Positions 2,189 to 43,129 of a stretch of DNA of 64,000 nucleotides are shown piece by piece. How positions within the stretch are numbered: the stretch's first letter is position 1; each line of letters starts with the position of its first letter. Made by a program: the position numbers and the translations under genes. Source of the DNA: Actinomycetota bacterium (GTDB taxonomy: Bacteria; Actinomycetota; Thermoleophilia; Gaiellales; Gaiellaceae); NCBI GenBank assembly GCA_004366385.1, contig SIRU01000058.1:1-64000 (forward strand), written 5' to 3'. Under the pieces are notes generated by a model. The model worked only from the letters and a program-made list of their open reading frames with translations. It did not search any database and was not told the DNA's origin.

Positions 2189-3435
2189 GCCGTCGTCCTT
2201 CGAATGCGCGCGAGCGACTCCTCCCTGCCGAGGAGCTCGAGCGACTCGTACAGCCCCGGCGAGACGCGGGAGCCCGTGACCGCGACCCGGATCGGGAGAT
2301 ACACCGCGCGCGGCTTCTCCCCCAGCTCCTCGCAGAGCGCCTTCAGCGCAACCTCGATCTCCGCGGCCGCCCACGGCTCGACCCGCTCCAGCGCGCCGGC
2401 CGCCGCCTCCAGGATCCGCGCGTCCAGCAGCTCGGGGTCCGGCTCGACATCGTGGAAGAGGAACCCCGCGAAGCTCTCGAACTCGCTCAGCTTCCCGATC
2501 TTCTCCTGCACGATCGCTGCGGCCGCGCGCACGCGCTGCTCGTCCCAGTCGACCCCCCGCTCGCGCAGGTACGCGACGAGCCGGTCTGCGAACTCCTCGA
2601 GCGGGAGCGCGCGCAGGTACACGCCGTTCATCCAGTCGAGCTTCGCGTAGTCGAACGTCGCCGGGCTCGAGCCGACGCGCTCGAGCGAGAAACGCTCGAT
2701 CAGCTCGTCGCGCGACATGATCGTCGTCTCCCCGTCCGGCGCCCACCCGAGCAGCGCGAGGAAGTTCATCAGCGCCTCGGGCAGGTAGCCGGCCTTGCGG
2801 AACTCGTCCACCGACACCGCGCCGTGGCGCTTCGAGAGCTTCTTCCCGTCCTCGCCGAAGACGTTCGGAACGTGCGCGTACACCGGCAGCTCGGCCCCGA
2901 GCGCGCGGAGCACGTTGATCTGCTTGGGCGTGTTCGAGACGTGGTCGTCGCCGCGGATCACGTGCGTGATCCCCTCCAGCGAGTCCTCGAGCGGCGAGGC
3001 GAAGTTGTAGGTCGGCCGGCCGTCCGAGCGGACGAGCACGAGGTCCTCCAGCTCCTCGTTCGGGAACTCGATCCGGCCCTTGATCGCGTCGTCCCAGCCC
3101 GTGACGCCCTCGTCGGGCATGCGGATCCGGATCGCGCCCTCGTCCTCGTACGCCGTGCCCTCGGCCACGAGCCGCTGCGCCTCCCCCTTCGCGCGCTCCA
3201 TGACGTCGAGCTGGAACGTCGTCTCGCCGTCCCAGTCGATGCCGAGCCAGCGCAGCGAGCGCTCGATCTGCTCGACGGACTCCTCCACCTCGCGGCTCGT
3301 GTCCGTGTTCTCGATGCGCAGCCGGCACTCGCCGCCGCGCCCGCGCGCGAACAGCCAGTTGAAGAGGAACGTGCGCACGCCGCCGATGTGCAAGAGGCCG
3401 GTCGGGGACGGAGCCATGCGAACGCGGACGGACAC
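2185..3435 (-). CDS. gltX: glutamate--tRNA ligase
   Basis: Class I motifs PSPTGLLHIGG (HIGH) and KLSKR (KMSKS). Start set at GTG3435 (VSVRVRMAPSPTG, the usual GltX N-terminus), 8 nt after a TACGCT -10-like box. The alternative ATG3456 would overlap the nfo start. Confidence 0.93.
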   Translation of the reverse strand: MSVRVRMAPSPTGLLHIGGVRTFLFNWLFARGRGGECRLRIENTDTSREVEESVEQIERSLRWLGIDWDGETTFQLDVMERAKGEAQRLVAEGTAYEDEGAIRIRMPDEGVTGWDDAIKGRIEFPNEELEDLVLVRSDGRPTYNFASPLEDSLEGITHVIRGDDHVSNTPKQINVLRALGAELPVYAHVPNVFGEDGKKLSKRHGAVSVDEFRKAGYLPEALMNFLALLGWAPDGETTIMSRDELIERFSLERVGSSPATFDYAKLDWMNGVYLRALPLEEFADRLVAYLRERGVDWDEQRVRAAAAIVQEKIGKLSEFESFAGFLFHDVEPDPELLDARILEAAAGALERVEPWAAAEIEVALKALCEELGEKPRAVYLPIRVAVTGSRVSPGLYESLELLGREESLARIRRTTA

Positions 3436-5959: not shown

Positions 5960-7243
5960 GTGGATTGCGCGCCGGCCATGCGTGGTACTCGTATGCCAGT
6001 GCGGATCGTCGTCGCCGTCGTCGTGCTCTGCTGTGCGCTGCTCGTGGCTCCGTCCGCGGGCGCCGCTCCGGGCGTCCAGTTCGGGATCCAGGACGACGCC
6101 TGGCTCGAGTACGGCCCGGGAACGCTCGCCCAGCGCGTCGCCCGGCTCGACCGGATGGGCTTCGACGCCGTCCGCGTCACGCTCGCCTGGCACGAGATCG
6201 AGACGAGCCCGGGGACCTACCGCTGGGGCCGCAGCGACCGGCTGCTCGGCGCGCTCCGCGCCCGCGGGCTCCGGCCGATCGTCACGATCTGGGGGACGCC
6301 GCGGTGGGCGAACCGGGGCGGTCTGCCGAACGTCGCCCCCGCCGAGGGCCTCGAGTACCACTTCCAGAACTTCACTCGCACGGCCGCCACGCGGTACCAG
6401 TACGTCGACGCCTGGCTCATGTGGAACGAGCCGAACAAGCCGCTCTGGCTCAACCCCGCGTCGCCGCGGACGTACGTGCAGCAGATCCTGAACCCGGGCT
6501 ACCGGGGGATCAAGGCGGCCAACCCGAAGGCGAAGGTCGCGGGCGGGGTGACCGCGCCGACCGCGGGGCGGGGCGGCATCGCGCCGGTCGACTTCATCAA
6601 GCTGATGCGGGCGAACGGCGCGCTCCTCGACGTGTACGCGCACCACCCGTACCCGGTGTTCCCCGGCGACACTCCCTTCAAGGGCGGCTGCAAGTGCAAG
6701 ACGCTGACGATGGCGGAGCTCCACCGGCTGCTCCTGTTCGTGAACCGGAACTTCCCGAAGGCGCGCGTCTGGCTCACCGAGTACGGCTACCAGACGAACC
6801 CGCCCGACCGGTTCGGCGTCTCGCCCGAGCTCCAGGCCCGCTACATCGGCGAGGCCGCGCGGCGCGTGTACCTGGCGCCGAAGGTCGACCTTCTCATCCA
6901 CTACCTGTACCGCGACGAGCCGAACCTCGCGCGCTGGCAGAGCGGCCTCGAGAACGTCCGCGGGCAGCCGAAGCTCGGGCTGAGGGCGTCGATGCTGCCG
7001 CTCGCGCAGGTCTCGCGGCGCGGGACGAGGACGACGCTCTGGGGTCAGGTGCGACCCGGCGCCGGGCGCCGGTCCTACGTGGTCGAGCGGAAGATCGCGG
7101 GTCGCTGGGTGCAGCTCGGCAGGCCAGGCCGGACGAACGCCCGCGGCTACTTCAAGCGGACGATCGCCGCGCCGAAGGGCTCCCAGGTCCGGCTCCGGTT
7201 CCCGGCCGGCAAGGTCGCGGGCCCGCCGCTCAGAGTCCGCTAG
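5960..7243 (+). CDS. secreted glycoside hydrolase (clan GH-A, TIM barrel)
   Basis: Signal peptide VRIVVAVVVLCCALLVAPSAGAAP. WNEPN (acid/base Glu) and LTEYG (nucleophile Glu) motifs. Start is uncertain: GTG5960, ATG5978 or ATG5993. Confidence 0.8.
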   Translation: MDCAPAMRGTRMPVRIVVAVVVLCCALLVAPSAGAAPGVQFGIQDDAWLEYGPGTLAQRVARLDRMGFDAVRVTLAWHEIETSPGTYRWGRSDRLLGALRARGLRPIVTIWGTPRWANRGGLPNVAPAEGLEYHFQNFTRTAATRYQYVDAWLMWNEPNKPLWLNPASPRTYVQQILNPGYRGIKAANPKAKVAGGVTAPTAGRGGIAPVDFIKLMRANGALLDVYAHHPYPVFPGDTPFKGGCKCKTLTMAELHRLLLFVNRNFPKARVWLTEYGYQTNPPDRFGVSPELQARYIGEAARRVYLAPKVDLLIHYLYRDEPNLARWQSGLENVRGQPKLGLRASMLPLAQVSRRGTRTTLWGQVRPGAGRRSYVVERKIAGRWVQLGRPGRTNARGYFKRTIAAPKGSQVRLRFPAGKVAGPPLRVR

Positions 7244-8286
7244 ACGCTCGCGATGCCCGCGCCGAGCGCGGCCGGGATCAGCTCGAGCGCGCGGTCGACG
7301 TCCTCGTCCGTGACGTCGAGGTGCGTCACGGCACGGACGACCGTCGGGTGGATCGTCGAGGAGAGGCCCACGCCTGCCTCGGCGAGGCGCGCGAGCGCGT
7401 CGGCGCGGTCGAGGCCGAGGAGCGAGACGTCGAGCTGGACGAAGTTCGTCTCCACGCGCTCGAGGTCGACGGGAAGGCCCGCGGCGACCAGGCCCTCGGC
7501 AAGCCGGCGCGCGCGGGCGTTGTCGTCCGCGAGCCGCTCGACGTGGTGGTCGAGCGCGTAGACCCCGGCGGCGGCGACGATCCCGGCCTGGCGCATCGCG
7601 CCGCCGAAGAGGTGCTTCTCGCGCCACGCGCGGTCGATCAGCTCGCGTGAGCCGGCCAGGAGCGCGCCGAGCGGGCAGCCGAGGCCCTTCGAGAGGCAGA
7701 TCGTCGCGGTGTCGAAACGTCCGGCGATCTCGGCGGGCGCGACCCGCTGCGCCGCCGCCGCGTTGAGGATGCGCGCGCCGTCGAGGTGCACCGCGAGGCC
7801 GGCCTCGCGCGCGGCCGAGACGACGCCCTCCAGCTCGGCGAGCGGCCACACGCGCCCGCCCGCGTTGTTGTGCGTGTCCTCGAGCGAGAGCACGGCTGCG
7901 CGCTGGTCGGCGACCTTCGAGCTCGGCGCCGCTGCCTCGCGCACCTGATCTCCCGACAGCCGGCCTCCGTTCCCGGCCAGCACGCGCGTCATGAGCCCTG
8001 CGTGCGCGGCGGCGCCGCCGTACTCGTAGACGACGACGTGCGAGTGCTCCTCGGCGAGCAGGACGTCGCCCGGGCGCGAGTGGAGCTTGAGCGCGATCTG
8101 GTTCGCCATCGTCGCGGTAGGGACGAAAACGGCGGCCTCCTGCCCGAGTAGCTCCGCGACGCGCCGCTCGAGCTCGAGCACGGACGGGTCCTCGCGCTTC
8201 TGCTCGTCGCCGACCACGGCCTCGGCGATCGCCTTGCGCATTCCGGGCGTGGGCTGCGTGACGGTGTCGGAGCGGAGGTCGATCAC
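7240..8286 (-). CDS. ltaE: low-specificity L-threonine aldolase
   Basis: 348 aa from GTG8286. N-terminal IDLRSDTVTQPT and PLP-lysine region ICLSKGLGCPLG. Confidence 0.9.
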   Translation of the reverse strand: MIDLRSDTVTQPTPGMRKAIAEAVVGDEQKREDPSVLELERRVAELLGQEAAVFVPTATMANQIALKLHSRPGDVLLAEEHSHVVVYEYGGAAAHAGLMTRVLAGNGGRLSGDQVREAAAPSSKVADQRAAVLSLEDTHNNAGGRVWPLAELEGVVSAAREAGLAVHLDGARILNAAAAQRVAPAEIAGRFDTATICLSKGLGCPLGALLAGSRELIDRAWREKHLFGGAMRQAGIVAAAGVYALDHHVERLADDNARARRLAEGLVAAGLPVDLERVETNFVQLDVSLLGLDRADALARLAEAGVGLSSTIHPTVVRAVTHLDVTDEDVDRALELIPAALGAGIASV

Positions 8287-8293
8287 GCGCGGC

Positions 8294-8303
8294 ACGGTAC
8301 CGT
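8294..8303. promoter_or_regulatory. palindrome ACGGTACCGT giving TACCGT -10-like boxes on both strands
   Basis: Plus-strand TACCGT 8298-8303 lies 7 nt before rlmN GTG8311. Minus-strand TACCGT 8299-8294 lies 7 nt before ltaE GTG8286. The whole intergenic region is 24 bp. Confidence 0.45.
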
Positions 8304-8310
8304 CAGGCGC

Positions 8311-9302
<992 letters not shown>

Positions 9303-9306
<4 letters not shown>

Positions 9307-15860: not shown

Positions 15861-15889
15861 AGAGTACGGTTCCTGCGCGCTCGTGTCAA
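15861..15889 (-). promoter_or_regulatory. sigma-70-type promoter upstream of ftsZ
   Basis: Minus-strand TTGACA (15889-15884), 17-nt spacer, TACTCT (15866-15861), in the lower-GC 116-nt ftsQ-ftsZ spacer. GAAGGTGG SD-like element near ATG15795. Confidence 0.55.
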
Positions 15890-43103: not shown

Positions 43104-43112
43104 CCGGCGCTG

Positions 43113-43122
43113 AGAGTAGCCT
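43113..43122. promoter_or_regulatory. overlapping back-to-back -10-like boxes (TAGCCT / TACTCT)
   Basis: Plus-strand TAGCCT 43117-43122 lies 7 nt before GTG43130. Minus-strand TACTCT 43118-43113 lies 9 nt before queA ATG43103. The intergenic region is 26 bp. Confidence 0.4.
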
Positions 43123-43129
43123 CGCGCCG

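Follow-up and report, generated by a model that had tools for sequence, protein, structure and literature searches.

Two divergent genes, one for an aldolase-like enzyme and the other for the methyltransferase RlmN, lie back to back across a gap of 24 bp (8287–8310, GCGCGGCACGGTACCGTCAGGCGC) in the window, the 64,000-nucleotide stretch of DNA analysed here, which corresponds to contig C49 of the metagenome-assembled genome (MAG; 2.73 Mb in 63 contigs, 72% G+C) of an uncultured, Solirubrobacterales/Gaiellaceae-like soil actinobacterium. The aldolase gene reads leftward from a GTG that appears on the plus strand as CAC (8284–8286), and rlmN reads rightward from the GTG at 8311–8313. The centre of the gap is occupied by ACGGTACCGT (8294–8303), a perfect 10-bp palindrome in which the hexamer TACCGT occurs once on each strand, with T8298 and A8299 common to both copies, and exactly 7 nt separate each hexamer from the GTG on its own strand (Table 1). 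GGAG, GAGG and AGGA are absent from 8287–8310 on either strand, so no Shine–Dalgarno (SD) site precedes either start. The original prediction, made from the letters of the window, had described the gap, the two GTG codons, the palindrome, both hexamers with their spacers and shared TA and the lack of an SD site exactly, and had read the arrangement as a symmetric bidirectional leaderless promoter.

Table 1. Features at and around the 24-bp gap between the aldolase gene and rlmN (positions in the window)
Feature	Position	Strand	Remarks
Threonine-aldolase-family (GntG-subfamily/LtaE-like) PLP enzyme gene	7240..8286	-	GTG start 8286; NF041359, 343 bits
Spacer, minus-strand hexamer to aldolase start	8287..8293	-	7 nt; entropy 0.95–1.67 bit in the genus
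-10 hexamer TACCGT, predicted aldolase promoter	8294..8299	-	Plus-strand reading ACGGTA; A8294 in 78/79, T8298/A8299 in 79/79 species
-10 hexamer TACCGT, predicted rlmN promoter	8298..8303	+	T8298/A8299 common with the minus-strand hexamer
11-bp core ACG(C/G)TACCGTC	8294..8304	.	Conserved, including N positions of both hexamers; column entropy <= 0.53 bit
Spacer, plus-strand hexamer to rlmN start	8304..8310	+	7 nt; variable, with 1–2 nt indels among species
rlmN (radical-SAM 23S rRNA/tRNA A2503/A37 C2 methyltransferase)	8311..9306	+	GTG start 8311; TIGR00048, 303 bits

The rightward product (331 aa) exceeded the 290-bit cut-off of the RlmN model TIGR00048. For the leftward product (348 aa), the best NCBIfam model was that of the GntG-family aldolases, NF041359, while the LtaE model PRK10534 aligned from its profile position 1 with 260 bits, under its cut-off. 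The gene name rlmN proposed earlier therefore stands, and the name ltaE is right at the level of the threonine-aldolase family although the LtaE model itself stays below threshold. As the protein is above cut-off for the GntG-family model alone, threonine should not be assumed to be its substrate. Both start codons also held, by homology and by comparison of related genomes. The rlmN frame contains no ATG, GTG or TTG between the preceding stop codon and 8311, and tblastn matches to distant RlmN homologues start at residue 1. The minus-strand aldolase frame is open far upstream and contains an in-frame GTG at 8295, which was the choice of the first-pass gene finder; we rejected it as unconserved in the genus, since G rather than C stands at 8293 in 50 of 79 relatives. 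Because, in addition, a CAC/CAT column stands right before the codons for I-D-L-R-S-D-T in 77 of 80 species, 8286 is the conserved aldolase start, and the N-terminus of E. coli LtaE fits it as well.

The shared hexamers are the nearest signals of their kind for both genes. Besides the one at 8298, no plus-strand TANNNT occurs in 7900–8310, the 400 nt before rlmN, and besides the one at 8299–8294 no minus-strand TANNNT occurs within ~220 nt upstream of the aldolase start. A scan of 8000–8600 for E. coli-type sigma-70 promoters and terminators gave no match, and none is expected at 72% G+C; no Rfam family matched 7900–8700 at E <= 1.

The original prediction had proposed that a leaderless signal should show up genome-wide as positional enrichment of TANNNT before start codons. 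We called genes with a self-trained finder that scores dicodon log-odds against the five other frames and uses no upstream motif, which gave 2691 genes at a coding density of 91.8%, their starts being predictions. TANNNT with its first T at -12 to -16, that is, 6–10 nt before the start, precedes 572 of 2660 predicted starts (21.5%) and only 0.11% of internal in-frame ATG/GTG codons at the same distance (n = 28,764), so the enrichment is confirmed. The profile peaks at -12 (7.9%), followed by -13 (5.5%), over a background of ~0.2% per position, and both TACCGT hexamers of 8287–8310 stand at -13. Since SD-like motifs are enriched too, the genome uses both initiation modes, and in roughly half of the predicted genes the start is preceded by neither TANNNT nor an SD-like motif. 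When sequences were aligned on the hexamer genome-wide, neither a -35 nor an extended -10 element contributed information, and the logo of the hexamer itself holds only ~0.1 bit at the N positions. The choice of start codon varied with distance, GTG prevailing at -12 (150 of 211) and -13 (95 of 147) and ATG at -14 (57 of 101) and -15 (52 of 82), a trend that may reflect start-site selection or start-calling errors.

The two-way design recurs in this genome. Among 396 divergent gene pairs, 82 have a hexamer 6–10 nt from both starts; these pair counts, and those that follow, depend on a start set that was refined with the TANNNT signal itself. The shared-TA form, ANNNTANNNT, accounts for 10 pairs with gaps of 23–27 nt, including the 8287–8310 locus and the queA pair (43103/43130), and a second form, TANNNTA, for 4 pairs with gaps of 18–20 nt. 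These two are the only overlaps of opposite hexamers that need just four A/T bases, which would fit a genome in which A/T is scarce. Of the 22 divergent pairs with gaps of 22–28 nt, 10 contain ANNNTANNNT. The pattern occurs 104 times in the 2.73 Mb, as compared with 322 for the composition-matched TNNNATNNNA, and 43 of the 104 sites fall in divergent intergenic DNA, which makes up 2.3% of the genome. At a frequency of 3.8e-5 per position, and with ~3 allowed positions per divergent gap (n = 396), chance would give fewer than 0.1 such pairs, whereas 10 are observed. Promoter-like A/T patterns are strongly avoided within genes (28 genic ANNNTANNNT versus 201 genic TNNNATNNNA), and TANNNTA occurs 55 times genome-wide versus 420 for ATNNNAT.

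The window holds two further ANNNTANNNT sites. At 43104–43129, the minus-strand queA and a small plus-strand coiled-coil gene lie 26 bp apart around AGAGTAGCCT (43113–43122), and an alignment of 30 genomes from the genus shows a variable plus-side spacer but an almost invariant core and queA-side spacer (9 nt). The third site, 15861–15870, lies in the ftsQ/ftsZ gap within a co-directional block and does not belong to a divergent pair; its minus-strand TACTCT is part of a TTGACA-17-TACTCT promoter.

We then compared the locus across the genus, where the divergent aldolase–rlmN pair is present in 94 of 108 species-level genomes, 80 of them parsed and about 10 more read by eye; as species of a single genus, these are non-independent samples for all counts given here. 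A plus-strand TANNNT precedes the rlmN ATG or GTG by 6 nt in 56 species, by 7 nt in 22 and by 8 nt in one, that is, in 79 of 80. The minus-strand hexamer with the shared TA is also present in 78 of these 79 species, with A8294 kept in 78 of 79 and T8298/A8299 in all 79; its minus-strand T is lost in L176. The spacers on both sides are nearly random (0.9–1.75 bit) and carry indels of 1–2 nt, not of triplets, so they are non-coding. The aldolase side is laxer than the rlmN side: among the 78 species with an anchor, its spacer measures 7–8 nt in 65, 10–12 nt in about 11 and 22 nt in two, and in the species with 10–12 or 22 nt the aldolase mRNA would have a short leader or come from another promoter. 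In three species (L097, L174 and L095) the usual aldolase start is a CTG, and an in-frame ATG or GTG further upstream lies 7, 7 and 10 nt from the hexamer, respectively; start codons thus track the hexamer.

Rearranged loci add to this picture. In L001, a more distant MAG, 64 bp separate the two genes and a copy of the core accompanies each of them at 6–7 nt (ACGCTACCG by the aldolase start and GCGCTACCGT by the rlmN start in L001:2880–3000), which looks like a duplication of the shared promoter or its resolution into two; in both L001 and L100 the aldolase gene retains a hexamer of its own at 7–8 nt. In genome G002 (locus L099, G002:C4), rlmN keeps the core, and an insertion of ~170 bp lies between the core and the aldolase gene; the insertion carries a GC-rich hairpin, CCCCGTAT...ATACGGGG, and the aldolase gene is then left with no hexamer at 6–10 nt.

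Several other variants were seen. L136 and L143 show an apparent tandem duplication of 14–15 nt at the aldolase 5' end (CGGAGGTCG[A/G]TCAC twice), which brings the gap to 38 nt and places the copy nearer the hexamer out of frame. L170 (G098:C14) is a second copy of the locus within one genome, with a 20-nt gap and the TA lost (ACGCTTCC), and may be a degenerate paralogue or bin contamination. In G021, G088 and G086 the aldolase gene has no rlmN neighbour. In other families of the Solirubrobacterales (upstream of position 3001 in each of L005, L008, L014, L009 and L012), rlmN is divergent from a pseudouridine-synthase-like gene (N-terminus M-R-L-A-K-Y-L) across gaps of 19–24 nt, with CCACCATAGG or AACGATAGG as the conserved core. 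In these cores a minus-strand TATGGT or TATCGT overlaps a plus-strand CACCAT or AACGAT, which resembles the TANNNTA or "18-bp" form with a first base other than T.

Within the gap, conservation is not limited to the bases that TANNNT requires. The 11-bp core is conserved as a whole, with entropies of at most 0.53 bit versus 0.9–1.75 bit in the spacers; all 79 species share C8300 and C8301, and 78 of them share G8296, a near-invariance that the ~0.1 bit found at the N positions genome-wide does not predict. The mycobacterial CGN/SRN extended -10 (Cortes 2013) was considered as its cause and rejected: CGN stands before just 16.6% of leaderless-type hexamers, and positions -3 to -1 hold at most 0.05 bit. 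The perfect palindrome is found in some 7 of ~89 species, with ACGCTACCGT in the rest. Since 8297 is usually C and the perfect form is so confined, the palindrome is not the selected feature. The "palindromic" and "symmetric" character first ascribed to the core is thus incidental as far as the perfect palindrome is concerned, and the symmetry is restricted to A-N3-TA-N3-T.

Taken together, these data indicate that 8287–8310 is most probably a minimal bidirectional promoter of the sigma-A type that drives two leaderless mRNAs. The TA step at 8298/8299 would supply positions 1–2 of a TANNNT -10 hexamer on each strand. In one orientation, bound RNA polymerase would start the rlmN mRNA at G8311 or an adjacent base, and polymerase bound in the other orientation would start the aldolase mRNA at the G of the GTG at 8286 or an adjacent base. 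With starts at the GTG codons, both mRNAs would therefore have neither a 5' leader nor an SD site, and both would depend for translation on the leaderless pathway that is widespread among Actinomycetota; any upstream promoter contacts would fall within the first codons of the opposite gene. We infer the transcription start sites, the leaderless translation and the interplay of the two directions from these features. The reading as a bidirectional leaderless promoter around a shared TA is accordingly well supported, if indirectly, by the genome-wide enrichment, the recurrence of the design, its conservation and the tracking of the hexamer by the starts, and what does not survive of the earlier version is its perfect symmetry. 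That two polymerases compete for the one site, as had also been proposed, is sound sterically, the two binding modes being mutually exclusive, but there is no sign that it is of consequence. Competition at five bidirectional promoters of E. coli could be measured only once one direction had been strongly activated, the basal activity being too low for it (PMC12825309), and nothing suggests such activation for two housekeeping genes.

Other explanations of the arrangement would have to account for the same features. The laxer aldolase side raises the possibility that rlmN alone is leaderless from this site, the aldolase mRNA having a short leader or another promoter and the reverse hexamer being weak or incidental. 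The spacing speaks for such a one-way promoter (6–8 nt before rlmN in 79 of 80 species, with 10–12 nt in about 11 and 22 nt in two on the aldolase side), as do L176, which lacks the minus-strand T, and G002, where the core remains with rlmN after the ~170-bp insertion. However, A8294, which the minus-strand hexamer alone requires, is kept in 78 of 79 species, and the 7–8 nt aldolase spacing in 65 of 78; the three relocated aldolase starts restore distances of 7, 7 and 10 nt, and in L001 and L100 the aldolase gene has its own hexamer at 7–8 nt, so we regard a one-way promoter as unlikely. It is less likely still that promoters within the adjacent coding regions give rise to leadered mRNAs lacking an SD site for both genes, with the core having another role or none. 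Other initiation modes do exist, given that about half of the genes have neither TANNNT nor an SD-like motif, yet no other TANNNT was found in the 400 nt before rlmN or the ~220 nt before the aldolase gene, nor was any sigma-70-type match, and the conserved distance from hexamer to start would go unexplained. Because TANNNT carries little information, A/T bases might fall into this pattern by accident where a gap is short, but with fewer than 0.1 ANNNTANNNT pairs expected against 10 seen, and with the four key bases kept in 78–79 of 79 species between randomised flanks, chance is scarcely credible.

The near-invariant N positions bear on a different question, namely what else the core may encode. 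It might act chiefly as an operator through which a sequence-specific DNA-binding protein, such as a dimeric repressor of ACG-N4-CGT specificity, governs one or both genes, and its likeness to -10 elements would then be secondary. Conservation well beyond the four bases needed by TANNNT (C8300 and C8301 in 79 of 79 species, G8296 in 78 of 79) would agree with an operator, as would the outer arms of ACGnTAnCGT, which are symmetric in nearly all species. Yet the features by which an operator palindrome is known, a conserved repeat, recurrence at target genes and an adjoining regulator gene, were not found: the genome has a single ACGGTACCGT and 3 copies of ACGNTANCGT, and the 25 GCTACCGT sites lie mostly within genes and show no regulon pattern, so a regulon was rejected; nor does a regulator gene flank the aldolase–rlmN pair. 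The queA pair, which served as a control, has a core that differs in sequence (AGAGTAGCCT in the window, AGAGTAGCCTCG across 30 genomes) and shows the same invariance of the N positions, so the extra conservation appears to be general to shared cores and not the mark of one operator. An operator would also leave the strict distance of 6–8 nt to the start codon unexplained, and we consider it improbable. In a shared core each central base is read by two promoters, and the N positions may therefore tune promoter strength or the left/right ratio. As a tentative extension, to which we give only a small chance, shared cores (ACGCTACCGTC in ~80 species and AGAGTAGCCTCG in 30) could encode more than two generic -10 boxes, the central bases setting the ratio of leftward to rightward initiation at a single RNA-polymerase site or being read by a lineage-specific initiation factor. 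If so, an element of 10–11 bp would be a tuned two-gene expression unit in Thermoleophilia.

The promoter type is already known, and it recurs many times in this genome. The finding leaves the current understanding of promoters and of leaderless translation unchanged. On the preferred reading as a bidirectional leaderless promoter, a gap of 24 bp can suffice for initiating both the transcription and the translation of two genes in an uncultured lineage of the Actinomycetota, in a design that this 2.7-Mb genome employs again and again (no fewer than 10 shared-TA pairs and 4 TANNNTA pairs). Such elements may be of use in calling start codons and predicting promoters in high-G+C MAGs, in considering how genome compaction and the scarcity of A/T favour promoters that share few A/T bases, and as natural templates for very small bidirectional expression parts.

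On the side of leaderless initiation, the locus and its genome resemble what has been described in other Actinobacteria. In M. tuberculosis, the dominant promoter signal is TANNNT and a -35 consensus is lacking, 22% of the expressed genes are leaderless (transcription start within 5 bp of the start codon, ATG and GTG alike), closely juxtaposed divergent promoters are common, and prpD/Rv1129c is a divergent pair in which both genes are leaderless (PMC3898074). The present genome agrees with that system (Cortes et al. 2013, PMC3898074) in that TANNNT is the sole signal, no -35 element is seen, ATG or GTG would stand at the 5' end and 20–25% of genes are involved, and TANNNT ~6–7 nt before starts agrees with an in-silico survey of Actinobacteria (Zheng et al. 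2011, PMC3160421). At the locus itself we found TANNNT at 7 nt on both sides and no SD site, within a genome-wide enrichment of the same hexamer. In contrast to those systems, the genome is a MAG from the Thermoleophilia, and the support is statistical and comparative; we found no published map of transcription start sites for Thermoleophilia, and only partial mentions of double-leaderless bidirectional promoters in place of an explicit published description.

On the side of bidirectionality, the locus resembles promoters described by Warman, Forrest, Wade and Grainger (bioRxiv 10.1101/2020.01.31.928960; Nat Microbiol 2021), who showed that bacterial promoters are often bidirectional through symmetric -10 elements, with divergent start sites mostly 18 bp apart, 23 bp among the other preferred spacings, and similar results from actinobacterial start-site maps. 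Configurations of 18, 10 and 23 bp have been named, with small variation allowed (PMC12825309). Archaeal bidirectional promoters with a single TATA box (T. kodakarensis and H. volcanii) likewise have a symmetric core and two divergent, often leaderless transcripts, but they employ the TBP/TFB machinery at a spacing of ~52 bp and are comparable by analogy only. As in the 23-bp class, the -10 elements at 8287–8310 lie on opposite strands with base-paired key bases, TA positions 1–2 of one pairing with positions 2–1 of the other (T8298/A8299, 78–79 of 79 species). The geometry predicts start sites 25 bp apart here and 24 bp apart in most of the genus, as compared with distances of 7–25 bp for bidirectional promoters of this kind, and 6-nt spacers on both sides would give 23 bp. 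Because the shared-TA geometry yields 23–25 bp, the locus would belong with this known class, combined with actinobacterial leaderless initiation. It differs from the situation in E. coli, where 18 bp is the commonest spacing, in that the shared-TA form is commoner here than TANNNTA, the "18-bp" form (10 versus 4 short divergent pairs), and its start sites are predicted from sequence, unlike those of the Warman/Grainger class, which were mapped by experiment. It further differs from that class in that the predicted start sites coincide with the start codons, so that the 24-bp intergenic region would be the whole promoter.
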